Shown here in pieces: positions 3,909 through 64,000 of a stretch of 64,000 nucleotides of DNA. Below the pieces are notes generated by a model. That model was given only the letters and a program-made list of their open reading frames with translations, did not search any database and had not been told where the DNA came from. The DNA comes from Holophagaceae bacterium (lineage in GTDB: Bacteria; Acidobacteriota; Holophagae; Holophagales; Holophagaceae): the NCBI GenBank assembly GCA_035255465.1, contig DATEZP010000060.1, forward strand, positions 5,159 through 69,158, read 5' to 3'. A program made the translations under genes and the position numbers. Numbering within the stretch: position 1 is the stretch's first letter; the number at the start of each line of letters is the position of its first letter.

Positions 3909-3923
3909 GGAGGGGGCCCGGCC

Positions 3924-4232: not shown

Positions 4233-4319
4233 GGGATGCTCCTTGGGCCATCTATCGGAACGGGACGGCCTGATCTTTTGGATGGGCATCCCGGCGGCCG
4301 GTGTCCCCTCCCAAGGGGG

Positions 4320-4883: not shown

Positions 4884-4902
4884 GGCGGAAGGATGCCACA
4901 AT

Positions 4903-5173
4903 GGGAGCGTGTCCAAGTAACCGAAGGGAACCGCGTTGAATCCAAAGGGGCTTCAGACAAGGAGGGCTGCGCAGGGCGATGCGGGTTCATCGTTCAAGCA
5001 GCCCGACGCCGGATCAAGCCCCTTTGGGTTCAACCCTTCGGGCTGGAGCGCCAGCCGTCGCGCCCCGGCGTTACCCTCACTCCGTGGTGAACCCGCACCA
5101 CCTTCGTTCGGTTGCCTTGGGGCACTCGGCTGGCGTTCCAGCGCGGTCCCTTCGGTTACTTGGACACGCTCCC
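4903..5173. mobile_element. MITE-like element, copy A (271 bp, perfect 26-bp terminal inverted repeats GGGAGCGTGTCCAAGTAACCGAAGGG, internal nested hairpin)
   Basis: Left end 4903..4928 and the reverse complement of 5148..5173 are identical. Internal inverted repeat TTGAATCCAAAGGGGCTT / AAGCCCCTTTGGGTTCAA. Second copy at 50299..50543. Confidence 0.6.
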
Positions 5174-5177
5174 AGTG

Positions 5178-6008
5178 ATGGTCGAATTCCTGGATCTGGA
5201 GTCCCGCCTGATGAAGGCCACCCGCGACGCCGTGGGCGAGGCGCACGCCTATGTCTGCTTCTCAGGGGGCATCGACAGCACCCTTGTCCTGGCCGCCTGT
5301 CTGAAGGCCGGATTGCCCACCACCGCCGTGCTCGCCGTGGGCCCCAGCCTCGCCCGTAGCGAACGGGCCGACGCCCATGCCCTGGCCGGGCACCTGGGGG
5401 TGGAAGTCATCGAACTGGAGGCCGGGGAAGCTGAGGTGGCGGGCTACCGCGCCAACCAGGGCGACCGCTGCTACTTCTGCAAATCCAGCCTCTACGGGGT
5501 GACGGAAGCCCTGGCCGCCAAACACGGCCTCTCCGGCGTTCTGCTCAATGGCACCCAGGTGGAGGACCTCGGTGACCACCGCCCCGGCCTCAAGGCTGCT
5601 CAGGAACACGCCGTGAAGAGCCCCCTCGTGGAGGCCGCCTTCCGCAAGGCCGACATCCGCACCTTGGCCCACGCCTGGGGCCTGCCCAACGCCGACAAGG
5701 AGGCTTCGCCCTGCCTGGCCAGCCGCTTCCCCGTGGGCACCGAAGTCACCCCCGAGCGGTTGAAGCAGGTTGAGACCATGGAGGAATTCCTCCGCGCCAA
5801 GGGCCTCTGGCCCGCCCGCGCCCGCTGGCACGACTCCGTGGTGCGTCTGGAATTGGCGCCTGATTCCATGGTGCTGGCCCTGCAGGAGCCCCTGCGCTCC
5901 GAGATTGAGCGTGCCGCTTGGCGCGCCGGCTTCCGTTTCGCCGCCGTGGACCTGGGCGGCATCCAGAGCGGCAGCCTCTCCAAGGCCCTGAACGAGGTGA
6001 GCGCTTGA
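5178..6008 (+). CDS. larE: LarE, PP-loop ATP-dependent sulfur transferase (pyridinium-3,5-biscarboxylic acid mononucleotide sulfurtransferase)
   Basis: VCFSGGIDSTLVLAAC PP-loop and CYFCK motif. The track start 5112 lies inside the MITE; MVEFLDLE at 5178 is more likely. Confidence 0.8.
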   Translation: MVEFLDLESRLMKATRDAVGEAHAYVCFSGGIDSTLVLAACLKAGLPTTAVLAVGPSLARSERADAHALAGHLGVEVIELEAGEAEVAGYRANQGDRCYFCKSSLYGVTEALAAKHGLSGVLLNGTQVEDLGDHRPGLKAAQEHAVKSPLVEAAFRKADIRTLAHAWGLPNADKEASPCLASRFPVGTEVTPERLKQVETMEEFLRAKGLWPARARWHDSVVRLELAPDSMVLALQEPLRSEIERAAWRAGFRFAAVDLGGIQSGSLSKALNEVSA

Positions 6009-6658
6009 CTGCGGAAGTCCGTTGGGATCATTCCCGTGAAGGCCGCACCGGCATCCCTGAGGTCATTTTCGGCCCCGGCAAGACGGTGGCCCAGGTGGTC
6101 ACCCTCTTCCAGGAGGCCGAGGGCTTCCGTTTCGCCACGCGCCTGAACGAGGACCAGATGGCGGCCCTGGAGGGCCTGGCCACCGTAGATCCCGTGTCCC
6201 GCACCGCGGTGAAGGACCCCCGGCCCCTGCGCCGCCAGCCCCCCGTGGCCGTCATCACCGCCGGCACCGGCGACATCCCCTGGGCCACGGAGGCCAAGGC
6301 CGTCCTCGAGGCCCTGGGCCACCCCGCCAAGGCCTTCTTCGACGTGGGCGTGGCGGGCCTCCACCGCATGCAGGCCATCCTCCCCGAACTGCGCGAGTGC
6401 CCCGTGGTCATCGTCTGCGCCGGCATGGAGGGCGCGCTGCCCTCCGTCCTCGCCGGCCTCATTGACGCCCCCCTCATCGCCGTCCCCACCCCCATCGGCG
6501 CCGGCATCAGCGAAGGCGGCACCGTCGCCCTCCACGGCATGCTCGCCTCCTGCAGCCCCGGCATCGCCGTCGTCAACATCGGCAACGGCTTCGGGGCGGC
6601 GTGCATGGCGATTAAGTTCATGAACCGGATCGGAAAGCTGGAACGCGAAGAGCGCTAA
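6005..6658 (+). CDS. larB: LarB, PurE-like nickel-pincer cofactor biosynthesis carboxylase/hydrolase
   Basis: AVITAGTGDIPWATEAKAVLEALGH...VVIVCAGMEGALPSVLAG. TTG start at 6005 overlaps the larE stop 6006..6008. Confidence 0.8.
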   Translation: MTAEVRWDHSREGRTGIPEVIFGPGKTVAQVVTLFQEAEGFRFATRLNEDQMAALEGLATVDPVSRTAVKDPRPLRRQPPVAVITAGTGDIPWATEAKAVLEALGHPAKAFFDVGVAGLHRMQAILPELRECPVVIVCAGMEGALPSVLAGLIDAPLIAVPTPIGAGISEGGTVALHGMLASCSPGIAVVNIGNGFGAACMAIKFMNRIGKLEREER

Positions 6659-6662
6659 GAAA

Positions 6663-6733
6663 AACGCAAAGAGCGCGAAGAAAGCAGGATTTGCTTTGGT
6701 GCTCTTCGCGCTTTTCTTCGCACTCTTCGCGTT
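6663..6733. repeat. Intergenic hairpin repeat, family A (arms built of CGC[A/G]AAG / CTTCGCG 7-mers); convergent terminator-like element
   Basis: aacgcaaagagcgcgaagaaagc ... cttttcttcgcactcttcgcgtt. Near-identical copy at 12561..12632. Lies between the convergent larB and asnB. Confidence 0.6.
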
Positions 6734-6736
6734 CCC

Positions 6737-8434
6737 CTAGTTAGGTGCTCCCTCGTGCACGTCCAGCACCGCCCGTCCGGAAGGATCGATCATCTTCTGG
6801 AAGGCGGCGTCCCACTTGAGGGCGGTCTCGGTGCTGCAGGCGACGCTGCGCTCCCAGGGGACGCAGGCCGCGCAGGTGGCGCTGGGGAAGTGCTGCTCGA
6901 AGAGCTGGCGGTAGAGGTAGGCCTCCTTGGTCTCCGGGGTCTTGAGGGGGAAACGCTCGGCGGCGTGGGCGAGCATGGCGTCGGTGACGGCCTGCTCGGC
7001 GGTGTCCTTCAGGGCCTGGATCCATGCATAGCCCACGCCGTCGCTGAACTGCTCCTTCTGGCGCCAGAGCACCTCGTCGGGCACATAGCCCCTGAAGGCT
7101 TCACGGAGGGGCCACTTCTCCAGGGGGCGGGGCCGGGGGGCGTTGCGGGGCACCTTCACCTCGGGATCCAGGGCCATGGCCACGTCCAGGAATTCGCGAT
7201 CCAGGAAGGGGACGCGAGCCTCCACGCCCCAGGCGGCGCTGGCTTTGTTGGCGCGGGCGCAATCGTAGAGGTGGAGCTTCTGGAGCTTGCGGACGGTTTC
7301 CTCGTGCAGCTCGCGGCCGTCCGGCGCCTTATGGAAGTAGAGGTAGCCCCCGAAGATCTCGTCGGCGCCTTCGCCCGACAGCACCATCTTGATGCCCATG
7401 GCCCGGATCTTCCGCATGAGCAGGTACATGGGGGTGGAGGCGCGGATGGTGGTGATGTCGAAGGTCTCCAGGTGGTGGATCACCTCGGAGAGCGCATCGA
7501 GGCCCTCCTGCACGGTGAAGTGGATCTCGTGGTGCACGCTGCCGATGTGTTCGGCCACCTTCCGGGCCGGGGCCAGGTCCGGCGCGCCCTCCAGGCCGAT
7601 GGCGAAGGAATGGAGGCGGGGCCACCAGGCGGGTTCCTGATCGCCGGATTCCACTCGGGACTGGCTGTACTTGGCGGCGATGGCCGCGATGATCGAGGAA
7701 TCCACGCCCCCGGAGATGAGCACGCCGTAGGGCACATCGCACATGAGCTGGCGGTGCACGGCGGCCTCCAGGGCCTCCCGCAGCTGGGCGGGATCGTAGG
7801 GGGCGGAGGGCACGGTCCCGGGCACGGCCCAGGTGGGGTGGTCGTAGCGCTGGAAGCCCTTGTCCGCTTCGTGGCCCAGGTAGAAGTGGCCAGGGGGGAA
7901 CTCGCGGATGCGTTCGCAGATGCCCACCAGGGCCTTCATTTCCGAGGCCACGTGGAGCACTTCCTGGCGATCCCACCCCACGTAGAGCGGCACCACGCCC
8001 ATGGGATCCCGTGCGATGAGGAAGGTCTTGCGGCGGGGATCGTGGAGTACGAACGCGAAAATGCCGTTCATGCGGTTCAGGAAGGTGGCGGGAGCCTCCT
8101 CGTCATGGAGGTAGAGGATCACCTCGCAATCGGACGCGGTCTGGAAGTCGTGGGGGCCCTGCAGGCCCCGACGCAGCTCCTGGTGGTTGTAGATCTCGCC
8201 ATTCACGGCCAGCACGGCGCCCGTGCGAGTGTCCACCAGGGGCTGGGCGCCATGCTCCACGTCCACGATGGAGAGCCGTTCGTGCACCAGGATCGCGGTG
8301 TCATCGCTGTGGATGCCGCTCCAGTCCGGGCCCCGGTGCCGGAGCCGGCGGGAGAGGGCAAGGGCCTGGGTACGCCGCTCCGTGTGGGGGGCTTGGGAGG
8401 GATCGAGGTTGAGGAGGGCGAAGATGCCGCACAT
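6737..8434 (-). CDS. asnB: Asparagine synthase (glutamine-hydrolysing)
   Basis: MCGIFALLNL N-terminal Ntn-Cys; SGGVDSS PP-loop. Confidence 0.9.
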   Translation of the reverse strand: MCGIFALLNLDPSQAPHTERRTQALALSRRLRHRGPDWSGIHSDDTAILVHERLSIVDVEHGAQPLVDTRTGAVLAVNGEIYNHQELRRGLQGPHDFQTASDCEVILYLHDEEAPATFLNRMNGIFAFVLHDPRRKTFLIARDPMGVVPLYVGWDRQEVLHVASEMKALVGICERIREFPPGHFYLGHEADKGFQRYDHPTWAVPGTVPSAPYDPAQLREALEAAVHRQLMCDVPYGVLISGGVDSSIIAAIAAKYSQSRVESGDQEPAWWPRLHSFAIGLEGAPDLAPARKVAEHIGSVHHEIHFTVQEGLDALSEVIHHLETFDITTIRASTPMYLLMRKIRAMGIKMVLSGEGADEIFGGYLYFHKAPDGRELHEETVRKLQKLHLYDCARANKASAAWGVEARVPFLDREFLDVAMALDPEVKVPRNAPRPRPLEKWPLREAFRGYVPDEVLWRQKEQFSDGVGYAWIQALKDTAEQAVTDAMLAHAAERFPLKTPETKEAYLYRQLFEQHFPSATCAACVPWERSVACSTETALKWDAAFQKMIDPSGRAVLDVHEGAPN

Positions 8435-39131: not shown

Positions 39132-39966
39132 CAGGGAATCCGGAGAGGTTGGCGCTTGGAGATGGCGTCCTGGATGGGCGCTGAAAGCACGTATCGGCCA
39201 CTTGGGGGCGGAAGGAGAGGCTGATGCTGTTCGTTCAGGTTCTTGCAGACGTCCAGCAGGACCTGACGGATGGTGAGGCCGGTCGTGAAGGGGTTCCGGC
39301 CCTTGCGCAGGGTGGGCATGGAATCCCCGCTGCCATAGAGGTAATCGCTGGTGGCGACGCGCACCGTGGCTTTCGGATCGATGGGTCGGCCATCAGCCCA
39401 GGTGACGTTCAACGTGGCGTGGTCGGGCGGCCCGTCCACGGTGACCTTCACGCCGGAGATGGGTTCACCCGCCCGGGATTGCAGGCCTTCCCTCACGACT
39501 TGGATGATTTCCGCGCCGGTGAGATCGACCACGATGACTTCGTTCTCGAAGGGCATCACCTCGAAGATGTCGCCCACCTTCAACAGGCCCGGCTTGAGGT
39601 TGGCCCGGACGCCGCCGCGGTTCGCGATGGCGAAGGCCACCTCGGTGCCGCTCACCTGGGTGGCCCGGGTGCGGATGGCATCGCAGATCCAGTAGCCGAG
39701 CAGGTGCTCCTGCCCATTGCCGCCGCGGAAGAGGCCCTGGGGGGCTTCCACGAGGGGCATCTCGGCCAGGGCCCTGACCTCCTGGGTGCGGGGGGCGATG
39801 AAGGCCTTGAGTTCGGGATCCTCTGCAATGGCGGCGTTGACAGGCACGATGGCTGCAGCGCCCAGGGCGGAGGGCGCGGGGCGTGTGGCCACTGGCACCG
39901 CCACCGGAGCCTGCGTCCGGCAGGCCGTGAGGAGGATGAGGGCGAGGGCGACGTTACGCTTCAACG
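39131..39966 (-). CDS. 5'-nucleotidase C-terminal (substrate-binding) domain lipoprotein
   Basis: TTG start; LKRNVALALILLTAC lipobox; ATSDYLYGSGD, MPFENEVIV. Stop/start ATGA overlap with the downstream gene. Confidence 0.7.
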
Positions 39967-40889
39967 GGTGCCCCCTGGTTGACGGCCGCCTCCAGGGCGG
40001 CCCGTTCCCGGCGGATGTAGGCGTCATGCACGGTGAAGAGGGCGGCCACCCGCAGCACCCAGCCCAAGGTCCAGGCGCTCGCCGCCACGGCGATGAGTTG
40101 CAAGAGCACCAGCATCCACACGCGGCCCAGAGTGGCGCCGCCCATGCGCCAGCCGATGGCGAGGGCCGTGCCGTGCAGGAACAGGCGGAGGGCCGATCCA
40201 CCGAGGATCAGCGCGCCCCACTGGAGGGGGTGCAACCACAGGCGTTGGAAACTGTGGCCCAGGTGCTTGAACCAGCCGCCCCGCTCGGGGTCCAGCCGCG
40301 CCACGCGCAGCAGGGCCCACTGGAGGAAGCAGGCGCCGCTCCAGGCGAACCAGAAGAGGGGGCGGAAGATGAAGAGGAGCCACGCGAAGGAGTCGATGCC
40401 CCGCTCGCCGAAGATCTTGAGGATGAAGATGCCCACCATGACCGGCAGGTAGAGGGGCAGGGGCCCCAGGAGGAGGGCCTCGAGCGCGCCCTTGAACCAG
40501 GGGCCGAAGGTGGCCTCGCGATTCAGGCGATCCGCCTGCATCCGCCAACCGCTCCAAAGGGCGACGCCGAGGCCCAGGAGCAGGAAGACGAGGGCCCAGG
40601 CGGGCAGGGGCTGGTGGCGCCATTCGCCGTTCCACCAGAGTTCCATCAGCTCTTTCGCATCGAGCCGCTCACCCCAATGCACGGGCATGCCGCTGTGGCC
40701 CGCGAGGCCCACCAGGTGCCGGGCCAGGAAGAAGGCGGGCGGAAGGGAGGCCAGCAGCCAGCCCAGGATCAGACCGAGGCCGGGCCCGCTGAAACCACCC
40801 GGCAGCGCGGCCCGCAGGAAGCTCCAGGGCCCCTTCGGTGAGAGCGTCTCGTCAAGGTCGAGCGGGGAAGGCGGCGGTGCGAGGTCCAT
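39954..40889 (-). CDS. Hypothetical polytopic membrane protein
   Basis: Six or more hydrophobic segments; start MDLAPPPSPLD. Confidence 0.55.
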   Translation of the reverse strand: MDLAPPPSPLDLDETLSPKGPWSFLRAALPGGFSGPGLGLILGWLLASLPPAFFLARHLVGLAGHSGMPVHWGERLDAKELMELWWNGEWRHQPLPAWALVFLLLGLGVALWSGWRMQADRLNREATFGPWFKGALEALLLGPLPLYLPVMVGIFILKIFGERGIDSFAWLLFIFRPLFWFAWSGACFLQWALLRVARLDPERGGWFKHLGHSFQRLWLHPLQWGALILGGSALRLFLHGTALAIGWRMGGATLGRVWMLVLLQLIAVAASAWTLGWVLRVAALFTVHDAYIRRERAALEAAVNQGAPVEA

Positions 40890-41003
40890 GCGGCGTCCGG
40901 TAATGAGGCTCCATGCTACCTCGCCCGTTGGATCCAGGTGCGACTTGATCCCGGAGGATTCCGGTTGACAGGTGCTGGATTCTCTGGGTTCACTTTTGAA
41001 ATC

Positions 41004-41096
41004 ATGCGGACCTCCCAGGCCATGTGCCATTCCATGAACTGCACCTGCTGGTGCATGTTTTGGCATGCCGGCTCGGAGGCTTCCGCGGACACCTAG
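41004..41096 (+). CDS. trpL: trp leader peptide (30 aa, two Trp codons)
   Basis: MRTSQAMCHSMNCTCWCMFWHAGSEASADT*; TGG codons at 41049 and 41061. The stop lies just 3' of the anti-terminator segment. Confidence 0.5.
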   Translation: MRTSQAMCHSMNCTCWCMFWHAGSEASADT

Positions 41097-41124
41097 ACCC
41101 CAGACCTAAGGTCCCCGCTTCCTC

Positions 41125-41158
41125 CGAGCCCGATCCCAGGATCGGGCTTTTTGTTTGT
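41125..41158 (+). terminator. Attenuator terminator immediately upstream of trpE
   Basis: GAGCCCGATCC cagg GGATCGGGCTTTTTGTTTG. Alternative pairing GGCTCGGAGG (41070..41079) with CCTCCGAGCC (41121..41130). Confidence 0.55.
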
Positions 41159-41168
41159 CAGGAATTCC

Positions 41169-42566
41169 ATGGTCCTCCTCCGCCACACCCTTCCCGCCGA
41201 CCTGCTGACGCCCCTGGCCGCCTACCTGGCCCTGCGTCCGGCCGGCGCGAGCCTGCTCCTGGAGAGCGCCGATCAGGGTGAGCGGGTGGGGCGGCACAGC
41301 TTCGTGCTGGTGCAGGGCGGACCCTCCGTGAGCCTCGCGGCCCCTGCCCGGGGTTGGGTGGACGCGCTGCGGGGCCTCGCGCCGACCCTGGAAGGCGATC
41401 AGCGCCACGATCCCTCGGGCCTGCCCACGGGCCGGGATCCGCTGCCCGTGGGCGTGGGCCTGGCGGGTTACGTGGGCTTCGAGGCCCTCGCGGGCTTGGA
41501 GGCCACGCTGCCGCTGCCCGAGCGGAACAGCCTTGGCCTCCCGGCCGTGTGGGCGCAGGTCTTCGACGCGGCCCTCGTGTTCGATCACCTGCACCAGGTG
41601 GCGGAACTGCAGGTGCTGGATCGCGATGAGCCCACCGCCTTCAACCGGCTGTCAGGCCTCCTGCGCCAGCTCCGCACGCTGATGCTCCCCGGCGACGTGC
41701 GCGGCCCGGAGCCGCGCCTGCGGCCGCTCCAGACCCAGGCGGCCTTCGAGGCCACGGTGCGCCGCGTGCAGGCCTACATCCACGAGGGCGACGTCTACCA
41801 GCTCGTGCCCAGCCAGCGCATGGAGGTGCTGGATCCGCCGACGCCGTTGGAGACCTACCGCCGCTTGCGCCGCCTGAACCCCAGCCCCTACGGCTTCCTC
41901 CTGGAGCAGCCGGGCTTCGCCCTGGCGGGGGCGAGCCCCGAGATGCTCGTGCGCGTGGCCGCGGGCGAGGCGGAGACCCTGCCCATCGCGGGCACGGTGC
42001 TCCGGGGCGCCAATGAAGAGGAGGACGCCGACCGCTTCGAAGCCCTCAAGGCCGATCCCAAGGAGCGCGCCGAGCACCAGATGCTGGTGGACCTCGCCCG
42101 CAACGACCTGGGCCGCGTGGCGATCCCCGGGGGCGTGCGCGTGGAGAAGCCCCTGGCCCTCCAGCGCACGAGCCACGTGCTGCACCTCACCACCACCGTG
42201 AAGGCCACGATCAAGCCCGGCCTCGATGCCCTGGACGTGCTGGCGAGCGCCTTCCCCGCGGGCACCGTGAGTGGCGCGCCCAAGCTGCGCGCGGCCCAGC
42301 GCATAGCTGAATTGGAAGGCGAGGCCCGCGGCCCCTATGGCGGCGCGCTGATCCGCCTGGGCGCCGATGGCGTGCTCGACTCCGCCCTCATCCTGCGCAC
42401 GGTCACCTTCGTGGGGGATCGCGCCTACCTGCAGGCGGGCGCGGGCGTCGTGAAAGCCTCGGATCCCACGCGGGAATACCTGGAAACGCTGCACAAGATG
42501 GGCGCGCCGGCCCAGGCGCTGGGGGTCGTGTTGCCCAGGCCGGAAGTCCTGGAGGGGGTTCGATGA
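41169..42566 (+). CDS. trpE: Anthranilate synthase component I
   Basis: LLESADQGERVGRHSF, GTVSGAPKLRAAQRIAELE. Confidence 0.9.
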   Translation: MVLLRHTLPADLLTPLAAYLALRPAGASLLLESADQGERVGRHSFVLVQGGPSVSLAAPARGWVDALRGLAPTLEGDQRHDPSGLPTGRDPLPVGVGLAGYVGFEALAGLEATLPLPERNSLGLPAVWAQVFDAALVFDHLHQVAELQVLDRDEPTAFNRLSGLLRQLRTLMLPGDVRGPEPRLRPLQTQAAFEATVRRVQAYIHEGDVYQLVPSQRMEVLDPPTPLETYRRLRRLNPSPYGFLLEQPGFALAGASPEMLVRVAAGEAETLPIAGTVLRGANEEEDADRFEALKADPKERAEHQMLVDLARNDLGRVAIPGGVRVEKPLALQRTSHVLHLTTTVKATIKPGLDALDVLASAFPAGTVSGAPKLRAAQRIAELEGEARGPYGGALIRLGADGVLDSALILRTVTFVGDRAYLQAGAGVVKASDPTREYLETLHKMGAPAQALGVVLPRPEVLEGVR

Positions 42567-43150
42567 TCCTGCTGATCGATGCTCTGGATTCCTTTACCTA
42601 CAACCTCGTGCAGGCCTTTGAAACCCTGGGCGAAGAGGTGCTGGTGCGACGCTTCGATGAGATCGACCTCGCCCAGGCCCGGGCGCTGAATCCTTCCGCC
42701 GTGGTGCTTTCGCCGGGCCCCGGCCACCCCACCGAATGCGCCGCCCACATGGCCATCGCGGGCTCCGAGTGGGCCGTGCCCATGCTCGGGGTCTGCCTCG
42801 GCCACCAGGCCCTGGTGGCCGCCTCCGGTGGCACCGTGGGCCATGCGCCGGAGCCCCTCCACGGCGAGGCAAGCGAGCTCACCCACGAGGGCGACGGCCT
42901 CTTCGAGGGCCTGCCCCAGGGCCTGCCCGTGGGCCGCTACCACAGCCTCGCGGCGGATCCGACCACCCTGCCCGCCTGCTGGCGAATCACGGCGCGCAGT
43001 GGCGATGGCGTCATCCAGGCCATGGCCCACCGAACCCTTCCCCGCTGGGGGGTGCAGTTCCATCCGGAAAGCATCCTCACGCCCCAAGGCCCCCATCTCC
43101 TCGCCAACTTCCTCCGCCTCGCCGGCCAGACCTCAAGAGCTCTCACATGA
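42563..43150 (+). CDS. trpG: Anthranilate synthase component II (glutamine amidotransferase)
   Basis: MILLIDALDSFTYNLVQ; GVCLGHQ; HPES. Confidence 0.9.
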   Translation: MILLIDALDSFTYNLVQAFETLGEEVLVRRFDEIDLAQARALNPSAVVLSPGPGHPTECAAHMAIAGSEWAVPMLGVCLGHQALVAASGGTVGHAPEPLHGEASELTHEGDGLFEGLPQGLPVGRYHSLAADPTTLPACWRITARSGDGVIQAMAHRTLPRWGVQFHPESILTPQGPHLLANFLRLAGQTSRALT

Positions 43151-44184
43151 CCCTCCTCCGCACCCACAACCCCATCCAACCTCTGCCAACCGACGTCGCC
43201 CGGGAGTTGATGGAGCGCTTCATCAACCAGGACACGGACCCATTGCTCGTGGGTGCCTGCCTGGCCCTGCTGGCTCAGCGCACGCCCACCGCCGAAGAGC
43301 TCACCGCCTTCGCCGAGGCGCTCACCGAGGTGGCTCGCCCCTTCCCGGCCACGGGCGAACCCGCCCTCGATACCTGTGGCACCGGCGGCGATGGGGCCTC
43401 CACCGCCAACCTCAGCACCCTGGCCGCCCTCTTCCTGGCCAGCCGCGGCATCGCCGTGGCCAAGCACGGCAATCGGGCCGCCACCTCCACCTGCGGCAGC
43501 GCAGACCTGTTGGAATCCCTGGGCCACCCGCTGGAGCGAAGTGAAGGCGAACTCCTCGCGGATCTGCGGGAGCGCCGCTTCGCCTTCCTCTTCGCCCCGG
43601 CCTACCACCCGTTGCTGGGCCGCTTGAAGGAGATCCGCAAGCGCCTGGGCATTCCCACGATCTTCAACCTGCTGGGGCCCCTGCTGAATCCCGCGCGACC
43701 CGCCTACCAGGTGCTGGGGGTGGCCCGGGAGGAGTTGCTGGCGCCCATGGCCGGAGCCCTCGCGGCCCGGGGCGTGACGCGCGCCTTCGTGCTCCATGGT
43801 CGCGACCCGGAAGGCCGGGGGCTCGACGAGGCCAGCCTCGAAGGGCCCACGAAGGTGGTGCCCGTGGTGGAGGGCCGCGTGTTGCCCCCGGTGGTGCTCG
43901 TCCCCCGGGAGCTGGGCATCCCCATGCCCGATCGGGATGCCCTGGTGGTGCGGGATCGCGCCGAGGCCGTGGCCGTGGCGAAGGGGCTCATGGCGGGGCA
44001 GGGGCATCCCGCCTTCCGTCCCGCCGTGGCCGATGCGGTGGCCCTTCAAGCGGCCATGGGCCTCCTTCTGGTCCGCGATAAGGAACTGCCGGCATTGGCC
44101 CCCACCTTCAAGCTCCTCCGCGCTGAACTCGCCGCCGGATTCCAGGCGCCCATCCTCTCCTCCCTCGCCGAGGTGCGGTCATGA
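43147..44184 (+). CDS. trpD: Anthranilate phosphoribosyltransferase
   Basis: LDTCGTGGDGASTANLST; KHGNRAATSTCGSADLLE. Confidence 0.9.
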   Translation: MTLLRTHNPIQPLPTDVARELMERFINQDTDPLLVGACLALLAQRTPTAEELTAFAEALTEVARPFPATGEPALDTCGTGGDGASTANLSTLAALFLASRGIAVAKHGNRAATSTCGSADLLESLGHPLERSEGELLADLRERRFAFLFAPAYHPLLGRLKEIRKRLGIPTIFNLLGPLLNPARPAYQVLGVAREELLAPMAGALAARGVTRAFVLHGRDPEGRGLDEASLEGPTKVVPVVEGRVLPPVVLVPRELGIPMPDRDALVVRDRAEAVAVAKGLMAGQGHPAFRPAVADAVALQAAMGLLLVRDKELPALAPTFKLLRAELAAGFQAPILSSLAEVRS

Positions 44185-45023
44185 TCCTCCTCCCGGATCC
44201 CATCCAACTGGTGAAAGACGCGGAGCTGCCCGCGGGCAGCCACCTGCAGCGCGTGGTGGCCTCGGAGCTGGTGCGGGCCCTGCAGTTGCAAGTGATGCCG
44301 TTGACGGACCGGCGCCCGCGATCCGCCAGCGAGGCCGGTCCCTTCGAAGGGGCGTTGCGCGCGAGCCTTCGTCAGCGGGGCGCGGCGGTCATCGCCGAAT
44401 ACAAGCAAGGCTCGCCCTCCCTGGGCCCCTTCGCCCTGGGTACGCCCCTGCAGCGGCAGCTCCGCTTCTACAAGGATGGCGGCGCCGCCTGCTTCTCCAT
44501 CCTCACGGAACCGGCGTGGTTCTATGGCGAGACTTCCCACCTCGAAGCCGCGGCTGATCTCGGTGTGCCCCGGCTCTACAAGGGCTTCGTGATCTCCGAA
44601 GTGCAACTGCGCGAGGCCGCGGCCACGGGGGCCGAGGCGGTGCTGCTCATCGCCCGCGTGCTGAAGGGCCACACGGCCGCCTTCGCCGAAGCGGCCCGGG
44701 CCTATGGCCTGGAGCCGCTCGTGGAGCTGCACGACCTCACGGAGATCCCCTTGGCCCAGGCCGCCCAGGCCCGCCTCGTGGGCATCAACGCGCGGGACCT
44801 GGCCACGTTCACGTTGGGGGCCCCCACGGCGGCCCCCTTGCGCGCGGCCTTTCCCGAAGCGGTGCTGATCCGCGAGAGCGGACTGGCCACGCCCGAGGAT
44901 GCGCGGCGGGCGCTGGAGGCGGGCTTCGATGCGGTGCTCATCGGCGAGGCCCTCATGCGCAGCCTCAATCCCCGCAACTTCCTGGATCGCCTGTTCGGTT
45001 CTTTGCAGAAGGAGGCCGTATGA
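44181..45023 (+). CDS. trpC: Indole-3-glycerol phosphate synthase
   Basis: AVIAEYKQGSPSLG; LVGINARDL. Confidence 0.85.
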   Translation: MILLPDPIQLVKDAELPAGSHLQRVVASELVRALQLQVMPLTDRRPRSASEAGPFEGALRASLRQRGAAVIAEYKQGSPSLGPFALGTPLQRQLRFYKDGGAACFSILTEPAWFYGETSHLEAAADLGVPRLYKGFVISEVQLREAAATGAEAVLLIARVLKGHTAAFAEAARAYGLEPLVELHDLTEIPLAQAAQARLVGINARDLATFTLGAPTAAPLRAAFPEAVLIRESGLATPEDARRALEAGFDAVLIGEALMRSLNPRNFLDRLFGSLQKEAV

Positions 45024-45658
45024 GCCTGCTGGCGAAGGTCTGTGGCCTCACCTGTGAAGCGGACGCCGCGCTGGCCCTGGAGGCCGGGGCCGACCTCCTG
45101 GGCTTCGTGGTGCACCCTGACAGCCCGAGGCATTGCCCGGATGTCCGCGCCGCGGCTTCGGTGGCTCCCGAGCGGGGCGTGCTGGTGATGGTGTCCATGA
45201 CCGCGGATCCGATCCTGCGGGCGGTGGATACATCCGGCCTCCGGCGGGTGCAACCCCACGTGCCCGCGGTGCGCCGCGCCGATGTCCTGGGGAGGCTCCT
45301 GGCCGAGGGACTGGAACTCATCACGCCCTGGGCCGATGAATCGGGGCAGCGGGATCCCGAGGTGGGCCTGTTGCTGTGGGAACCCAGCCCCCGCACCACG
45401 GGCGTGCCGGGCGGTTCGGGCCGCACCCACGCCATGCTGCATCCGCCGCCACGCCCCTTCCTGCTGGCCGGTGGCCTCGATGGCGAGAACCTCGGCGAGC
45501 GTCTGGCCGCCATTCCCCAGGACGTGCTGAACCGGCTGCGGGGCGTCGATGCCGCGAGCCGGCTGGAGCGCAGCCCCGGCCGGAAGGATCCCGCGAAGGT
45601 CCGCAGCTTCCTCCAGGTGCTCCGCGCCTTCGAAGCCGCCCAAACCGCTTCCGTGTGA
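45020..45658 (+). CDS. trpF: Phosphoribosylanthranilate isomerase
   Basis: [11 protein letters not shown]...[15 protein letters not shown]. Confidence 0.8.
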
Positions 45659-45659
45659 G

Positions 45660-46850
45660 ATGCCCATGACCCCGACGTTCGAACTGCCGACCCGATTCGG
45701 CACCCAAGGGCTGGGCGGCTGCTATGCCCCCGAGACCCTCATGCAGCCCCTGCTGGATCTGGAAGCGGCCTTCCGGGAGGCCCAGGCCGATCCCGGATTC
45801 CAGGCGGAGCTGCAGGCCCAGTTGCGGGACTTCGTGGGCCGCCCCACGGCCCTCACACCATGTCCCCGACTCGCCCACGGGTTGGGATTGGAGGCCCTCT
45901 TCCTCAAGCGGGAGGACCTCACCCACACGGGCGCCCACAAGATCAACAACGCCATCGCCCAGGCCCTCCTGGCCCGGCGCATGGGCAAGCGCGAGGTCAT
46001 CGCCGAGACCGGCGCGGGCCAGCATGGCGTGGCCACGGCCGCGGCCTGCGCCCGGTTGGGCCTGGCCTGCACCGTGTACATGGGCGTCACGGACATGGCC
46101 CGGCAGGCCCCCAACGTGGCCCGCATGCGCCTCTTCGGGGCCGAAGTCGTGGGCGTGGCCGCAGGGCAGGGCACCCTCAAGGAGGCCGTGAACGAGGCCC
46201 TGCGGGCCTGGGCCGGGCGATGCGACAAGGCGCACTACATCCTCGGTTCGGCCCTGGGGCCCCACCCCTTTCCCACCCTCGTACGGAGCTTCCATCAGGT
46301 CATCGGCGAAGAGGCCCGGATCCAGATCGCCGAGCAGGGCGTGCCTTTGCCCGACGCGGTGATCGCCTGCGCAGGGGGGGGCTCAAACGCCTCCGGGTTG
46401 TTGATCCCCTTCCTGGATCAGCCCGTGCGCCGGGTGGCGGTGGAAGCGGGCGGGCATGGGACGGCGCTGGGCGAGCACGCGGCCCGCTTGGAGGGCGGCC
46501 GCCTGGGGGTTCTCCACGGCTGCAAGACGCTCCTGCTGCAAGACGACCATGGCCACACCGCGGAGACGGCCTCCGTGAGCGCGGGGCTGGATTATCCGGC
46601 CCTGGGCCCGGAGTTGGCGGCCTTGGCCCTCGATGGGCGCATCGAAGTCTGGCGCGCGTCCGATGCGGAAGCCCTCGCCGCCGCCCGCCAGCTCTGCGAG
46701 CTGGAGGGCATCCTGCCCGCCTTGGAAAGCAGCCATGCCCTGGCCGCCCTGCCGCGCTTGGCGGCCGAGGGCGCGCGCACCGTCCTGCTGGGCCTCAGCG
46801 GGCGGGGCGACAAGGACCTCGCCACCTACCAATCGCGTTTGGGGCTTTGA
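45660..46850 (+). CDS. trpB: Tryptophan synthase beta chain
   Basis: [22 protein letters not shown]; GGGSNA. Confidence 0.9.
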
Positions 46851-46851
46851 C

Positions 46852-47619
46852 ATGATTCCGATCCTTCCCTTCCTCATGGCGGGCGATCCGTCCTTGGAGG
46901 CGCTGCCCCAGCTCCTCTCCGAAGCCCGGGCCCTGGGCCTCGAAGCGCTGGAGCTGGGCCTGCCCCATTCGGATCCCATCGCCGATGGCCCCGTCCTCCA
47001 AGCGGCCGCCCATCGGGCCATCGGGCGCGGCGCCACGCCCCTCCGGGTGCTGGAACTCCTCGCTGGAATTTCAGACAGCCCTGACCTTGTGTTGTTCACC
47101 TATCTGAATCCCCTCCTCCAGATCGGGGCCCAGCGGCTCCTCGAGCTGCTGGCGCCCACACCCGTGAAGAGCCTCCTGATCGTGGATCTGCCCTTCGGGG
47201 AGGAACCCGGATTCGAGGGCCGCCTGCGCGAAGCCGGCTATCCCGTCATCCCGCTGCTGGCCCCCACCACGGATCCCCTTCGGGCGGCGCGGTTGCTGGA
47301 CGAACGCCCCGATCCGGGGCCCACCGCGCCCTTCGCGCAGCGCTTCGCCTATGTGGTGGCCCGGCTCGGTGTCACCGGCGGCGCCAGCGCCATGGATCTG
47401 GGTCCGGTGGAAGCCCGGGTGGCGGGCCTTCGCGCCATCACTTCCCGCCCCCTGGCCGTAGGGTTCGGGCTGTCCGATGCCGGAAGCCTCCAGGCCATCC
47501 GGGAGCTCGGCGCCACGCCCGTCATCGGCAGCGCCCTGGTGGCCGAACTCGCGGCGGGGGGCACCCTTCGCGGCAGCCTCGTGCCACGCCTCGCGCCGGT
47601 TACCGCGGCACGATCCTAG
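46852..47619 (+). CDS. trpA: Tryptophan synthase alpha chain
   Basis: MIPILPFLMAGDPS; LELGLPHSDPIADGPVLQ. Confidence 0.85.
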   Translation: MIPILPFLMAGDPSLEALPQLLSEARALGLEALELGLPHSDPIADGPVLQAAAHRAIGRGATPLRVLELLAGISDSPDLVLFTYLNPLLQIGAQRLLELLAPTPVKSLLIVDLPFGEEPGFEGRLREAGYPVIPLLAPTTDPLRAARLLDERPDPGPTAPFAQRFAYVVARLGVTGGASAMDLGPVEARVAGLRAITSRPLAVGFGLSDAGSLQAIRELGATPVIGSALVAELAAGGTLRGSLVPRLAPVTAARS

Positions 47620-50269
47620 GGAGTTCCACGAAGAAGATGGCGCCGCCCCCCGGCGCATTGAGGTAACCGATGGCTCCGCCCATGCCCTCCACGAGGGCCC
47701 GGCTGATGGAGAGGCCCAGGCCCGTGCCCGGGATCCGGCGCACTTCGGAGCTGTCGGCCTGGGTGAATTTCTCGAAGAGCAGATCGCCGAAGGAATCCGG
47801 CACGCCGGGGCCCTGATCCCGCACCTCGATGCGCCAGGCCGCGTCGGCGGGGTGCAGGGACAGGGTGACGGTGCCGCCCTGGGGGCTGTGCTTCACGGCG
47901 TTGGAGATGAGGTTGTTGAGCACCTGCACCAGGCGCCCGCCATCCACCCGGGCCTGGGCTTCCCCGAGAGGCTGGCCCTGCCGTTCCAGTCTTACCCCCA
48001 GCTTGGTGGCGAATCCTTGGGCCAGTTCCATGGATTTATCGAGCAGCGGGTCGAGGGGATGGAGCTTGAACTCCAACCGCAGCTTGCCGTGCTCCAGCTT
48101 CTCCAGGTCGAGGATGTCATCCACGAGGGTGCCCAGGTGGCGGGCGTTCTGGTGGGCGATGCGCACCAGCTCGCGGGCCTTCTCCGGAAGCGCGCCGCCC
48201 ACGCCGCCTTCCAGCAGCCCGAGGGTGCCCCGGATGGAGGTGAGGGGTGTGCGGAGTTCGTGGCTGACGATGGCGATGAGTTCGTTCTTGATCTTCTCCA
48301 GCTTCCTCCGGTCCCGCAGATCCCGCAGGAAGGCGGTGAAGAGCACCCCACCTTCCACCTCCACGGCGTTGAGGCCCACTTCGAGGGGGATGGGGTCGCC
48401 TGCACAGGGGAAGGCCATGGCCTCCCGTATGGACCCGGAGCCGCCGGTGGTCTTCAGGTGGGACATGAGGCCGGGCACCAGCTCCGAGACGGAGCGCCCC
48501 TTCAGGGCGGCCAGGTTCCAGCCCAACAAGCGCTGGGCGGCTACGTTGGCGCTCTCGATGTGGCCCGAAGGTTCGAGGATCAGGATCGGTTCCACGGCGT
48601 GATCGAGGATCATCCGGGCCCGGGCCTCGACGGTGGCGAGGGCGCGACCGCGGTCCTCCGCCAGCACCTTCACCGCGGACATCTGACCGCTGACCAGGAG
48701 CAGCAGCGCCCCCAACATGCCGGTGAAGCCAAGGCCGCCCGCGAGCACGAGGAAGACCTGCCACCCTTGGCTGGTGAGCAGGAAGGCGGCCGTGGGCCGC
48801 GCCTGCAAGGCCAGGCTGGCTCCGTAGATCTCCAGGGGGACTTCCTCCATCCAGGCTCCCTTCACGGGCTCGGCCGCGGTGTGGGCGGCCTCGATCCGCT
48901 GCCCGTCGGAGCGCTTGGCCATGAAGGCGAGGTTCACATCCCAGGCATGGGCCCGATCCGCCGCATCCGAAAGCACCGGGTCCGCGTAGAAGAGCAACGA
49001 GACGAACCCCATGAGCGCTTGGGCCCGCGCAGGCGCGGGGGGGATCTGGTTGCCGGCGTAGACGGGCATGGTGAGGATCATGGCCGGCCGGGGCACCGCG
49101 TCTTGGGCGAGGCGCTCCAGCATCACCAGCTGCGTGAGGCCCGCATCCCGGGAGTGGATCATGAGCGGGCCCTGGAATGGGCGCTGCATGAGATCCAATC
49201 CGAGGGCCGCGCGGTTCGGGGTGATCGGCTGCTTATAGGCCAGGGGCCAGTACTCGGCTCGGGTGCCCGCGCGCTCCGGCGCCTGCTGGGGGCCTATGTC
49301 CCGGATCTCGTAAGCCTCGCCCAGGATTTTGGACATCCGCGCCTCGAAGGCCTTCCGCTCCGCGCCGGACACCCGAGGCACCCAATCCACCGAGTGGAGA
49401 TCGGGATACCGCTGCAGGTAGGGTTCCACGAAGGCCTTGAAGCTGGCGGGCTCGATGGAGGGGAGGGCCTTGAACAGACCGCTCATGGCCTGGAGGAGTT
49501 CCTGGCGGGCTTCCAGGGTGGCGGCGAGCTCGCTTCGGGCCCGCTCGGCCCGGACGCGGAGGTTGCGGTGCAAGATCGCCTCTTCGCTGTGGCTCACCCG
49601 TACGAAGATGAGCACCACCGCGACGAGGCTGAGGCCCAGGGGAAAGCCCACCGTGAGCCGGCGATCCCGCCACAACGGGTCGCTGGATAACACCATCTGC
49701 AGGGCGGGGACGAAGATCACCACGCCGAGGGCGTCTCCCACCCACCAGGTCCACCAGGCGTAGGGAACCCCTTGGGCGGGGAGCACGTCCAGGGCCCACA
49801 GGGCTCCGGTGGCCGCGGTGGAGGCGAAGAGGCAGCCCACGACGCCGCCGAAGCCGAGCACCGCCGTGAGATCCCGGGGGGTGGTCATGCGCAGGGGCTC
49901 GGGCGAGACGCGCCGCACCATGTGCGCGCCCAGCAGGGCCTGGAGGGTCGAAGCCGTGGCCACCATCACCGCGATGGCATGCATCTGCCAGCCGTGCCCC
50001 AAGGGCCCGTTCCAGGAGATGGAGAGATTCATCAGGTAGGAGCCGAGCAGGATCCCGGGAGCGCCACGCCATCCGCGCCGGAGCACCTGGTAGAGGGCCA
50101 GGCCCGCGGGCGGGAAGATGGCCGTGGCGTAGCCCGGTGGGATGGCCAAGAGCAGGCCGAGTTTCCCCAGCGCCACGTAGGCCAGTGCGACGCCACCGAT
50201 CTCCAGGAGGAGGCTTCGGGCGGAGGTGGCCTCGGCACGGGGATCGGGCATGCCCGATTCATCGGCCAT
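47600..50269 (-). CDS. Sensor histidine kinase (MASE1 membrane domain, CHASE-like periplasmic domain, PAS, HisKA, HATPase_c)
   Basis: H-box IAIVSHELRTPLTSI; N/G boxes LISNAVKHSPQGG, GTGLGLSI. Start MADESGMPD at 50269 (alternative 50251). Confidence 0.85.
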   Translation of the reverse strand: MADESGMPDPRAEATSARSLLLEIGGVALAYVALGKLGLLLAIPPGYATAIFPPAGLALYQVLRRGWRGAPGILLGSYLMNLSISWNGPLGHGWQMHAIAVMVATASTLQALLGAHMVRRVSPEPLRMTTPRDLTAVLGFGGVVGCLFASTAATGALWALDVLPAQGVPYAWWTWWVGDALGVVIFVPALQMVLSSDPLWRDRRLTVGFPLGLSLVAVVLIFVRVSHSEEAILHRNLRVRAERARSELAATLEARQELLQAMSGLFKALPSIEPASFKAFVEPYLQRYPDLHSVDWVPRVSGAERKAFEARMSKILGEAYEIRDIGPQQAPERAGTRAEYWPLAYKQPITPNRAALGLDLMQRPFQGPLMIHSRDAGLTQLVMLERLAQDAVPRPAMILTMPVYAGNQIPPAPARAQALMGFVSLLFYADPVLSDAADRAHAWDVNLAFMAKRSDGQRIEAAHTAAEPVKGAWMEEVPLEIYGASLALQARPTAAFLLTSQGWQVFLVLAGGLGFTGMLGALLLLVSGQMSAVKVLAEDRGRALATVEARARMILDHAVEPILILEPSGHIESANVAAQRLLGWNLAALKGRSVSELVPGLMSHLKTTGGSGSIREAMAFPCAGDPIPLEVGLNAVEVEGGVLFTAFLRDLRDRRKLEKIKNELIAIVSHELRTPLTSIRGTLGLLEGGVGGALPEKARELVRIAHQNARHLGTLVDDILDLEKLEHGKLRLEFKLHPLDPLLDKSMELAQGFATKLGVRLERQGQPLGEAQARVDGGRLVQVLNNLISNAVKHSPQGGTVTLSLHPADAAWRIEVRDQGPGVPDSFGDLLFEKFTQADSSEVRRIPGTGLGLSISRALVEGMGGAIGYLNAPGGGAIFFVELPRIVPR

Positions 50270-50298
50270 GGCGAGGGCCGGGCTGAATCCGAGCTGAT

Positions 50299-50543
50299 CT
50301 AGGAGCGTGTCCAAGTAACCGGTGGGGCTGCCGCCCCAGCCCCCTCTCCCTATCACAGGCCCCACTGGGGCCTGTTCCCACGAAGCTGAGCTTCGTGGAG
50401 GGCGGAACCGGTTGAAACCAAAGGGGCCTGATCCGTTGTCGGCGCGCTTGCACGATGACACCGCATCGCGCCGCGCGCGCCTCCTCGACTGAGGCCCGTT
50501 TGGTTTCAACGCGGCTCCCGCCGATTCCTTGGACACGCTCCTA
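50299..50543. mobile_element. MITE-like element, copy B (about 245 bp; 17-bp TIR CTAGGAGCGTGTCCAAG; internal hairpin GTTGAAACCAAAGGGGCC / GGCCCGTTTGGTTTCAAC)
   Basis: Terminal inverted repeats and inner hairpin match copy A (4903..5173); the remaining interior diverges. Confidence 0.55.
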
Positions 50544-62911: not shown

Positions 62912-64000
62912 TGGGCCGCGAAACCGAATGGAACGGGAAGGCCTCCGCCATCCGGGCCTTGGGAACGCGAAGCTGGATCGGCGTGGTGTTGGCCCTGTTC
63001 ATCGGGTCCCTCGGAGCCGTGGATGGGCCCAAGGCCACCCCCCAGAAAACCAAGGCCGCCGTGGCCCACGGGGATTGCCGCCTCTGCCACCGCACCCACG
63101 CTTCAGCCATGAGCGCCGATGGCAAGACCCCGGCCGGCAAGAAGCAGGGCCCAGGCGCCTTCGCGCCCAGCGTGCTGGATCAGGTGTGCCTGGAATGCCA
63201 CCAGGGCCCCCCGGTGCCTGCCAAGGATTTCGAAGCGAGCAAGTTGGAGCCCTGGTCGGGTTCGGGTTCCAGCCATGTGGATGGCCCCTTCCTGGAGCGG
63301 GCCCGCACCTTCACCCGGATCGTGGACCGGGGCAATGGGCGCAAGCTCGTGCTCAAGGCCCAATGTGACGGGTGCCATGACGTGCATTCCAAGAACCGCA
63401 CCTCCAGCCTGCTACCCCTGGCCTTTGACGCGCAGGGCAAGGTCCAGCGCATCCGCCCCGCTAATGCCAGCCAGGTCTGCTTCGCCTGCCACGCGGGGCA
63501 GGAGGCCGTGAAGTTCTTCCGGGGCGACGGGGATCTCGGGGCCTTGATGGGCCCCACGGCGCAATCGGCCCACCGGCCCGGGGCCACGGCCTCGGCCCGG
63601 GCGGACTTGCCCAGCCTGCGCACGGGGTTCTTCACGGGCACGCTGGATTGCACCTCCTGCCACGACAATCCCAATCCCGCCGGGCCCAAAGGGCCGCACA
63701 CCTCTCCATTCCCCCACCTGCTCAAGGCCAGCTACGGAAGGGAAGGGGAGATCGCCACCGCGGGGCCCCGCGCGAACGAACTCTGCTTCAACTGCCACGA
63801 CCGCATCTCCATCGAAGGCAATCAGTCCTTCCCCTTCCACGCCCAGCACGTCAGCGGGTTCACGGGCCTGGGCGCCACCCGGGCCGGCAACCGGGCGCTG
63901 CCGGGTAAGCGGGCTGGGGCGGCGCCCCTGCCGTCCTGGAAACCCTTCACCTTCTCCGGCGCCGGCTCCTCCGGAGGCTTCGGCCAGCCCGCCAACTGCG
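62911..64000 (+). CDS. Multiheme c-type cytochrome (at least 6 CXXCH in the visible part), 3' truncated by the window edge
   Basis: ATG overlaps the porin stop (ATGA). N-terminal hydrophobic segment WIGVVLALFIGSLGAV. Heme sites CRLCH, CLECH, CDGCH, CFACH, CTSCH, CFNCH. Not in the ORF track (no stop). Confidence 0.75.
   Translation, partial: MGRETEWNGKASAIRALGTRSWIGVVLALFIGSLGAVDGPKATPQKTKAAVAHGDCRLCHRTHASAMSADGKTPAGKKQGPGAFAPSVLDQVCLECHQGPPVPAKDFEASKLEPWSGSGSSHVDGPFLERARTFTRIVDRGNGRKLVLKAQCDGCHDVHSKNRTSSLLPLAFDAQGKVQRIRPANASQVCFACHAGQEAVKFFRGDGDLGALMGPTAQSAHRPGATASARADLPSLRTGFFTGTLDCTSCHDNPNPAGPKGPHTSPFPHLLKASYGREGEIATAGPRANELCFNCHDRISIEGNQSFPFHAQHVSGFTGLGATRAGNRALPGKRAGAAPLPSWKPFTFSGAGSSGGFGQPANC

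Follow-up and report, generated by a model that had tools for sequence, protein, structure and literature searches.

The 64,000-nucleotide (nt) stretch of Holophagaceae DNA analysed here (contig DATEZP010000060.1, hereafter the window; G+C content 67.2%) carries a complete trpEGDCFBA operon, and the 279-nt intergenic interval that precedes this operon (40890-41168), located between trpE and a divergent gene encoding a protein of 311 amino acids (aa), very probably specifies a ribosome-mediated transcription attenuator of the Holophagaceae trpEGDCFBA operon. This reading is based on the elements found in the leader, on their conservation in relatives, on the covariation of the paired regions and on the alternative folds of the RNA. 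Four of the features that define this class of attenuators are well supported: a Trp-rich upstream open reading frame (ORF), an intrinsic terminator (regions 3 and 4, 3:4), an antiterminator that excludes it (2:3) and an anti-antiterminator (1:2). The mechanism would be that of a textbook Yanofsky attenuator and involves no new principle; it would be a known type of control found in a new lineage. All the features of the leader and of the operon described below lie on the forward strand.

As had been predicted from the sequence of the window, a 30-codon ORF with two Trp codons four codons apart is found upstream of trpE, at 41004-41096 (product MRTSQAMCHSMNCTCWCMFWHAGSEASADT, TAG stop codon at 41094-41096). 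This trpL-like leader-peptide ORF lacks a Shine-Dalgarno sequence. The two TGG are codon 16 (41049-41051), the first regulatory codon, located 21 nt 5' of region 2, and codon 20 (41061-41063), the last regulatory codon, located 9 nt 5' of region 2, i.e. of its GGCUCGG motif. At the Trp frequency observed in the trp enzymes (0.47%), the probability of finding two Trp in 29 codons is 0.008.

A TrpE-similarity scan of species-representative genomes gave 27 loci encoding a TrpE 63-96% identical to that of the window and having a readable upstream region. They include 18 loci from Holophagaceae or unclassified Acidobacteriota metagenome-assembled genomes (MAGs), including Geothrix rubra (L010), eight loci from Lysobacteraceae (Solilutibacter silvestris and related MAGs) and one from an Opitutia MAG. 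In L001, whose TrpE is 96% identical to that of the window, the leader differs by a single base. The original prediction had named homologous leaders lacking Trp codons as the observation that would speak against it; all 27 loci carry two or three Trp codons at a fixed position, arranged as WWW, WW, WxW or WxxxW (WCWFW in L004). Two additional metagenome loci, L126 and L172, also possess a leader ORF with two or three Trp codons, leading to a total of 29 homologous leaders. The leader ORF has 29-30 codons in 26 of the 27 relatives and 20 codons in L004. Five of these MAGs (L001, L003, L005, L014 and L022) are publicly labelled 'uncultured Solibacteraceae bacterium' while carrying a trp locus that is clearly of the Holophagaceae type, and this label is probably a taxonomic mis-assignment.

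The distances between the elements of the leader are conserved as well. The last Trp codon is located exactly 9 nt before GGCUCGG in 26 of the 27 relatives (12 nt in L027), and the alignment columns corresponding to this codon (T58, G59 and G60) are invariant or nearly so. The first Trp codon lies 12-21 nt 5' of region 2 in the relatives, and 12-15 nt in most of them. The region 2 motif is GGCUCGG, with the variants GCUCGG (L022) and GGCUUGG (L013), and the stop codon is found 24-30 nt past the start of this motif in the 27 loci, followed by CCGAGCCCG..CGGGCUUUU. From one clade to another, the peptides show no relationship outside W..GS(E/D)G (e.g. MRTSQAMCHSMNCTC-, MKSFLAHSRREAQLGF-, MVSSLPLPVRSLVFEA- and MHHLPAPCAFPATPRA-). 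The GGCUCGG motif varies little or not at all, even at the third positions of its GGC and UCG codons, which indicates that the constraint acts on the leader RNA rather than on the peptide.

This conservation bears on a different explanation, according to which the functional product would be the peptide, sensing free tryptophan in a TnaC-like manner, or an RNA or peptide acting in trans, as rnTrpL and peTrpL do, cis attenuation being secondary. The W-x-x-G-S-(E/D)-G tail could be read as a peptide motif, and trans-acting roles are documented for the RNA and the peptide of the trp attenuator (rnTrpL and peTrpL) of Sinorhizobium meliloti (PMC6614838, PMC7298713). However, this tail coincides with GGCUCGGA, whose third positions are invariant, as expected from selection on RNA. 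Furthermore, a TnaC-type logic would turn a biosynthetic operon on when tryptophan is abundant, i.e. would have the wrong sign, and a role in trans would add to cis attenuation instead of replacing it. An essentially peptide-based or trans-acting function is therefore considered very improbable.

Ribosome-mediated attenuation requires RNA segments able to pair in alternative ways, and these are found in the leader of the window. Region 1 (41006-41029), which corresponds to codons 1-9 of the ORF, is the 5' strand of the long anti-antiterminator hairpin; in the minimum-free-energy (MFE) fold of the leader, the 1:2 pairs involve 41006-41015/41075-41086, 41018-41021/41070-41073 and 41023-41029/41061-41067. 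An inner hairpin (41036-41057), whose loop and 3' arm contain Trp codon 16, is also predicted; as a speculation, it might act as an RNA polymerase pause hairpin. The region 2 core, GGCUCGGAGG (41070-41079), which also pairs with region 1, is the 5' arm of the antiterminator, and region 3, CCUCCGAGCC (41121-41130), is its 3' arm. Indeed, GGCTCGGAGG (41070-41079) and CCTCCGAGCC (41121-41130) are complementary at ten positions out of ten, in agreement with the pairing initially proposed. The intrinsic terminator (41126-41157) comprises a 10-bp stem made of GAGCCCGATC (41126-41135) and GATCGGGCTT (41140-41149), a CCAG loop and a T-tract (41148-41157); the terminator scan reports six G-C pairs out of ten and the tail TTTGTTTGTC, and the energy of the fold is -18.4 kcal/mol. 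Two details of the original prediction had to be corrected here. The segment 41121-41130 had been described as the 5' half of the terminator stem, of which it shares only its last 5 nt (GAGCC, 41126-41130), and TTTTTGTTTG, reported to end 8 nt before the trpE ATG, spans 41148-41157 and is found 11 nt from this ATG, located at 41169. A second perfect inverted repeat associates AGCCCGATCC (41127-41136) with GGATCGGGCT (41139-41148). Perfect inverted repeats of at least 10 nt are found in 1% of the shuffles of the 165-nt leader; the real leader carries two of them, which have one arm in common. The 184-nt leader displays a folding z score of -3.35 versus dinucleotide shuffles.

The position of the terminator is also relevant to a possible translational control, in which the hairpins would mainly control access to the trpE ribosome-binding site, or in which the translation of trpE would be coupled to that of the leader ORF. 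Such a control could be envisaged given that only 11 nt lie between the end of the terminator and the trpE ATG and that the AGGA motif, the Shine-Dalgarno sequence of trpE (41160-41163, 5 nt 5' of the ATG), begins 3 nt past the T-tract. However, this Shine-Dalgarno sequence is located outside every conserved helix, a hairpin followed by at least five U is a canonical intrinsic terminator whose U-tract is kept in all loci, and 72 nt separate the stop codon of the leader ORF from the trpE ATG, a distance too large for coupling by termination-reinitiation. Control at the level of translation is thus regarded as extremely unlikely, and the leader hairpins are considered below as alternative states of a transcriptional switch.

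As the two states of a switch cannot be described by one consensus structure, the three helices were examined separately; RNAalifold applied to the full alignment returns a hybrid of partial antiterminator and terminator that matches neither state. For the terminator, 270 out of 270 cells are paired in the 27 sequences, compared with 13-55% in controls slid by 1-3 columns, and two pairs covary (AU/GC, 15:12; UA/CG, 20:7). For the antiterminator, 93.3% of the cells are paired, compared with 14-59% in slid controls, and double changes are observed at four pairs, including GGCUUGG/CCAAGCC in L013 and A-U to G-C changes in Lysobacteraceae. In the MAFFT alignment, region 1 is out of register between clades, and helix 1:2 was judged by the partners found in the MFE fold of each sequence and by a swap test. 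Because the region 1 columns are misaligned and per-sequence folds had to be used, the evidence for this helix is weaker than for 2:3 and 3:4. In 25 of the 27 sequences, the MFE fold joins region 2 to nt 2-19 of the ORF, and in these 25 the variable base of GGA-N-GG and its partner form G-C (7), A-U (9), C-G (5), G-U (2), U-G (1) or U-A (1) pairs. In the swap test, the duplex formed with the own partner reaches -11.5 kcal/mol, versus -9.0 kcal/mol with a partner taken from another clade. In nearly all relatives, the inner hairpin is predicted (mean z score of -2.4) despite differing sequences, the Trp codons being part of its 3' arm or adjoining it. Globally, typical stabilities range from -26 to -50 kcal/mol for 1:2, from -21 to -35 kcal/mol for 2:3 and from -17 to -22 kcal/mol for 3:4.

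Folding the leader in its alternative conformations had been suggested as a check. It was done with the RNA segments left available by ribosomes at different positions, and these segments give either the antiterminator or the terminator. The full leader folds as 1:2 plus terminator. The RNA starting from 41064 or from 41070, which corresponds to a ribosome at Trp codon 16, folds into the antiterminator (-40.8 and -38.7 kcal/mol, respectively), the GAGCC base of the terminator being taken. With a ribosome at the stop codon, the RNA that remains available (from 41110 onward) adopts the terminator fold.

The following mechanism can be proposed from these data. Transcription would probably begin at the leader ATG (41004) or no more than about 3 nt away from it, and the ribosome would load on a leaderless 5' AUG. 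If translation does not occur, region 1 (41006-41029) would pair with region 2 (41061-41086), region 3 would remain free, and the terminator (41126-41149 plus the U-tract) would form, stopping transcription before trpE. If Trp-tRNA is plentiful, the ribosome would pass the Trp codons and region 2 up to the stop codon at 41094; region 2 would then be covered by the ribosome or re-paired behind it, so that the terminator would form and transcription would end. If Trp-tRNA is scarce, the ribosome would stall at Trp codon 16 (or 20) and keep region 1 apart, leaving GGCUCGGAGG (41070-41079) free. The latter would pair with the newly made CCUCCGAGCC (41121-41130), thereby removing GAGCC from the terminator stem, and the polymerase would read into trpE.

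The start of transcription assumed in this scheme comes from the organization of the putative promoter. A putative -35 hexamer TTGACA (40965-40970) is located 39 nt 5' of the leader ATG and followed, 17-18 nt further 3', by a weak -10-like element, GTTCACT (40988-40994). TTGACA is found 35-39 nt 5' of the leader ATG in 26 of the 27 relatives (TTGACT in L002), and their -10-like block is TTTCAT or TTTGAT, located 17-18 nt past the -35 and 6-10 nt 5' of the leader ATG. Given the placement of these two elements, transcription is predicted to start 0-3 nt before the leader ATG. Furthermore, a Shine-Dalgarno sequence is missing before the leader ATG in most loci. Promoter geometry and the missing Shine-Dalgarno sequence together suggest that the leader peptide is probably translated from a leaderless transcript. 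L006, L007 and L011, which belong to one clade, display GGAG 5-6 nt before the leader ATG; with a transcription start located further 5', this motif might serve as a Shine-Dalgarno sequence. A palindrome, CCGGA-GGAT-TCCGG (40951-40964), abuts the -35 hexamer. Its counterpart in L003 is CGGGA-TGAT-TCCCG, both arms being altered; no such palindrome appears in clades further away. It might be the binding site of a protein acting on the divergent gene or on the trp promoter, or have no function.

Several observations weigh against ribosome-mediated attenuation, or at least against parts of the scheme. In the clade of the window, there are only two, non-adjacent, Trp codons, and base composition alone would give them with a probability of 0.11. 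Because of this value, the Trp codons of the window are unconvincing on their own; it is the comparative data that make them convincing. The consensus promoter scan did not find any sigma-70 match at the leader because the -10 element is weak, the canonical A being absent at position 2. Concerning the 1:2 helix, L004 is devoid of region 1 and the MFE fold of L013 does not include 1:2 pairing. The antiterminator and the terminator compete for only 5 nt. The RNA starting from 41074 folds into the terminator, and for the RNA starting from 41070 the MFE structure (-38.7 kcal/mol) is closely followed by a centroid structure (-38.0 kcal/mol) that keeps eight terminator pairs. As both states have nearly equal energies, the choice between them must be kinetic: region 3 would meet region 2 before region 4 exists. 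Counted from the first base of the codon in the A site, a bacterial ribosome shields about 12 nt of RNA and can unwind as many as about 8-9 nt further on. The last Trp codon being 9 nt from region 2, a ribosome stalled there would stand right at the border of the switch helix, and such a shielding would hide the first 3-4 nt of this region (GGCU). Taken together, this shielding and the fold obtained from 41074 imply that stalling at codon 20 may not relieve termination. The spacing of the first Trp codon (21 nt in the window, 12-15 nt in most relatives) is compatible with a free region 2, that of the last codon (9 nt) being borderline; sensing would effectively fall to codon 16 or, in relatives with a WWW run, to the first Trp of this run. 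The strict 9-nt spacing suggests that the position of the edge of the stalled ribosome matters. At the other end of the ORF, the stop codon is located 24 nt past the start of region 2, so that a terminating ribosome would cover the 3' part of region 2 and not GGCUCGG. Finally, we infer the transcription start, the translation of the ORF, the positions of the ribosome and the response to tryptophan in vivo.

The short leader of L004 is peculiar. In this locus from a Holophagaceae MAG (TrpE 89% identical to that of the window), the 20-codon ORF found in 2865-3000, MNSTCWCWFWHAGSEASADT, contains three Trp codons but lacks the first 10 codons, i.e. region 1, as well as the usual TTGACA-39-ATG geometry. 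Devoid of region 1, this leader cannot form the anti-antiterminator. Its shortness reflects either a genuine deletion or an error of assembly.

The specificity of the leader was examined with a covariance model built from the 27 leaders and with a loose pattern, GGCTCGG N30-58 CGAGCCCG N8-20 CGGGCT, used to scan metagenomes. In the 64-kb window, the model finds a single strong match (41052-41156, 90.4 bits, E = 4e-24), and L079, L126 and L172, three leaders kept out of its construction, are recovered with 77-89 bits. A weak match on the reverse strand (63119-63222, 13.8 bits) shows no hairpin followed by a T-tract and was rejected as noise. The loose pattern gave at least 120 matches. Among the matches listed, only L126 and L172 are true leaders, so that this pattern is too permissive to gauge the distribution of the leader; the other 118 were attributed to chance in GC-rich DNA, being devoid of Trp codons, trpE and, except in L109 and L189, T-tract. 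L109 and L189 owe their covariance-model scores of 27-33 bits solely to their pre-selection with the loose pattern, and the genes found downstream are unrelated (flagellar-type genes and an unidentified ORF).

These matches are relevant to the possibility that the terminator is real and that the ORF is not a sensor. In this case, read-through would be constitutive or set by a protein, a small RNA or Rho, and the Trp codons and the complementarity would be incidental. Such a view can draw on the probability of 0.11 obtained for two Trp codons from base composition when the window is taken alone, on the lack of a detected Shine-Dalgarno sequence or consensus promoter, and on the occurrence of the loose motif GGCTCGG...CGAGCCCG...CGGGCT beside unrelated genes in GC-rich metagenomes (L109 and L189). 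It does not account for the presence of Trp codons in all 29 homologous leaders at a fixed distance of 9 nt while the rest of the peptide diverges, nor for an ORF length kept at 29-30 codons and for the covariation of all three helices. Other known types of trp control were also looked for. A TRAP site, as used in Bacillus, comprises 9-11 successive (G/U)AG triplets with 2-3 nt between neighbours; only three such triplets are found in 40964-41168, no two of them being at TRAP spacing. A T-box riboswitch sensing tRNA-Trp was rejected as well, since the Rfam scan (E <= 10) does not give any T-box match. A terminator uncoupled from the translation of the ORF is thus judged very unlikely, and the leader is treated in what follows as a ribosome-mediated attenuator.

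The original prediction emphasized the occurrence of an E. coli-type attenuation logic in a non-enterobacterial genome. The logic is supported by the relatives, the helices and the folds, but the surprise was overstated, since such trp attenuators are already known outside enterics (PMC6614838, PMC4007540, PMC4833913) and are even regarded as widespread (PMC6614838, PMC4833913). As in E. coli trpL, the leader includes a short ORF with Trp codons, four segments engaged in 1:2, 2:3 and 3:4 pairings and a terminator just before trpE; the operon located downstream encodes the whole pathway, as in E. coli, and the regulatory logic is identical. Differences are nevertheless numerous. The leader matches E. 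coli trpL (RF00513; Leader_Trp) neither in sequence nor in structure, the peptide has 30 aa versus 14 aa, and the Trp codons belong to an inner hairpin nested in the 1:2 stem, whereas they are found in region 1 itself in E. coli. The distance between the last Trp codon and region 2 is 9 nt here and about 17 nt in E. coli. Lastly, E. coli trpL possesses a 5' untranslated region with a Shine-Dalgarno sequence; the Holophagaceae leader ORF has no such sequence and is probably leaderless.

Other documented systems are closer in some of these respects. Like trpL/rnTrpL of S. meliloti, the leader would be a ribosome-dependent Trp attenuator of a non-enteric soil bacterium that releases a terminated attenuator RNA, and the S. 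meliloti rnTrpL transcript is leaderless (PMC6614838). However, the S. meliloti attenuator governs only trpE(G), versus a seven-gene operon here, and it belongs to another phylum, without any sequence similarity being detected. In Deinococcus deserti, the transcription start of the trpEGD leader was mapped by differential RNA sequencing 1 nt before the start codon of a leader peptide predicted to act in the attenuation of trp transcription (PMC4007540). This bacterium is also a GC-rich non-proteobacterium; its start was mapped, whereas that of the window is deduced from promoter geometry. The actinobacterial trp leaders of Corynebacterium glutamicum and Streptomyces venezuelae, cited in PMC4833913, are further examples and are grouped here with the Thermoleophilia/Gaiellales leaders described below. 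The 30-codon and probably leaderless ORF, the nested Trp codons, the 9-nt spacing and the 5-nt competition zone are variations within a known class, and leaderless ORFs have precedents in it.

Leaders with a similar organization were also observed in five Thermoleophilia/Gaiellales MAGs (L029-L031, L033 and L034, ~2826-2924), where a leader peptide, MQGIRNEAWWWLMSGRDPVR, is encoded about 80 nt 5' of trpE. In these leaders, a WWW run precedes the antiterminator arm (GUCCGGGCGG / CCGCCCGG) by 7-9 nt and a terminator then precedes trpE. They reach 27-31 bits with the Holophagaceae-type model, exactly 5' of trpE. They differ by the core of the antiterminator (GUCCGGGCGG/CCGCCCGG versus GGCUCGGAGG/CCUCCGAGCC), by the size of the peptide (20 aa) and by a TrpE that is only 44% identical, and their likeness to the Holophagaceae leaders results either from homology or from convergence.

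The leader is not recognized by family databases. The Rfam cmscan of 40000-42000 (E <= 10) detected neither RF00513 Trp_leader nor T-box; the three sub-threshold matches are unrelated, one being EBV sisRNA on the minus strand, which mirrors the antiterminator hairpin, and the other two being small RNA models that fit the terminator. Likewise, Pfam and NCBIfam scans (E <= 10) of the peptides of the window and of three relatives did not give any family match, Leader_Trp and the trp leader families included. Because it belongs to no Rfam, Pfam or NCBIfam family, the leader is unannotated in Holophagaceae/Geothrix, in Solilutibacter-type Lysobacteraceae and in related MAGs. A full-text literature search did not retrieve any trp attenuator described in Acidobacteria or Geothrix.

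The leader and syntenic trpE-G-D-C genes, encoding proteins 57-70% identical to those of the window, are found together in nine loci of Lysobacteraceae/Solilutibacter (L016, L018-L021, L023, L024, L026 and L079) and in that of the Opitutia MAG (L027), at positions ~2840-6800 of each locus. The next TrpE matches drop to 44% identity, a gap that may be partly artificial as the search favours close relatives. Such a distribution suggests, on the strength of sequence identity and synteny, that the operon and its attenuator were transferred together across phyla. It is conceivable, and is put forward here with reserve, that the leader represents an uncatalogued RNA family, characterized by a probably leaderless trpL of 29-30 codons and an invariant GGCUCGG / CCGAGCCCG switch, and common to Holophagaceae (Acidobacteriota), Lysobacteraceae (Pseudomonadota) and an Opitutia (Verrucomicrobiota) MAG. 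If so, the operon and the attenuator would have moved between phyla as a single regulated unit, and this unit, found in three phyla, would be a tidy case of horizontal transfer of a regulated operon. The switch point would then be the front of the stalled ribosome, as indicated by the 9-nt spacing, and this tight and invariant distance between the sensor codon and the switch helix could help to define how near a stalled ribosome sits to a regulatory helix. As in Sinorhizobium, an additional role in trans is conceivable for the peptide or for the leader RNA set free by termination (about 150 nt). The alignment of 27 sequences and the covariance model could seed a family.

Downstream of the leader, the complete trpEGDCFBA operon previously proposed was recovered, its seven genes (41169-47619) being assigned by NCBIfam. 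TrpG, TrpD, TrpB and TrpA exceed the curated cut-offs, whereas TrpE, TrpC and TrpF are below them with E-values of 1e-21 to 1e-112. trpE (41169-42566) encodes the anthranilate synthase component I (TIGR00564, E = 9e-112), its assignment being supported by the operon context. It is followed by trpG (42563-43150; TIGR00566, 188 bits versus a cut-off of 121), trpD (43147-44184; TIGR01245, 286 bits versus 199), trpC (44181-45023; NF001377, E = 4e-53), trpF (45020-45658; NF002298, E = 1e-21), trpB (45660-46850; TIGR00263, 515 bits versus 392) and trpA (46852-47619; TIGR00262, 145 bits versus 102). All junctions had been described as overlaps of 1-4 nt: this holds for trpE/trpG, trpG/trpD, trpD/trpC and trpC/trpF, which display 4-nt ATGA overlaps, whereas trpF/trpB and trpB/trpA are separated by 1-nt gaps.

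The 3' end of trpA shares 20 nt (47600-47619) with the 3' end of a convergent ORF of 978 aa (47600-50536, reverse strand), the C-terminal part of which, judged by reading rather than by a family-library scan, resembles a histidine-kinase transmitter domain. On the other side of the leader, the NCBIfam scan gave no family match for the divergent 311-aa gene (39954-40889, reverse strand, start codon at 40889). This gene is kept beside the trp leader in most Holophagaceae loci, with 36-93% identity.

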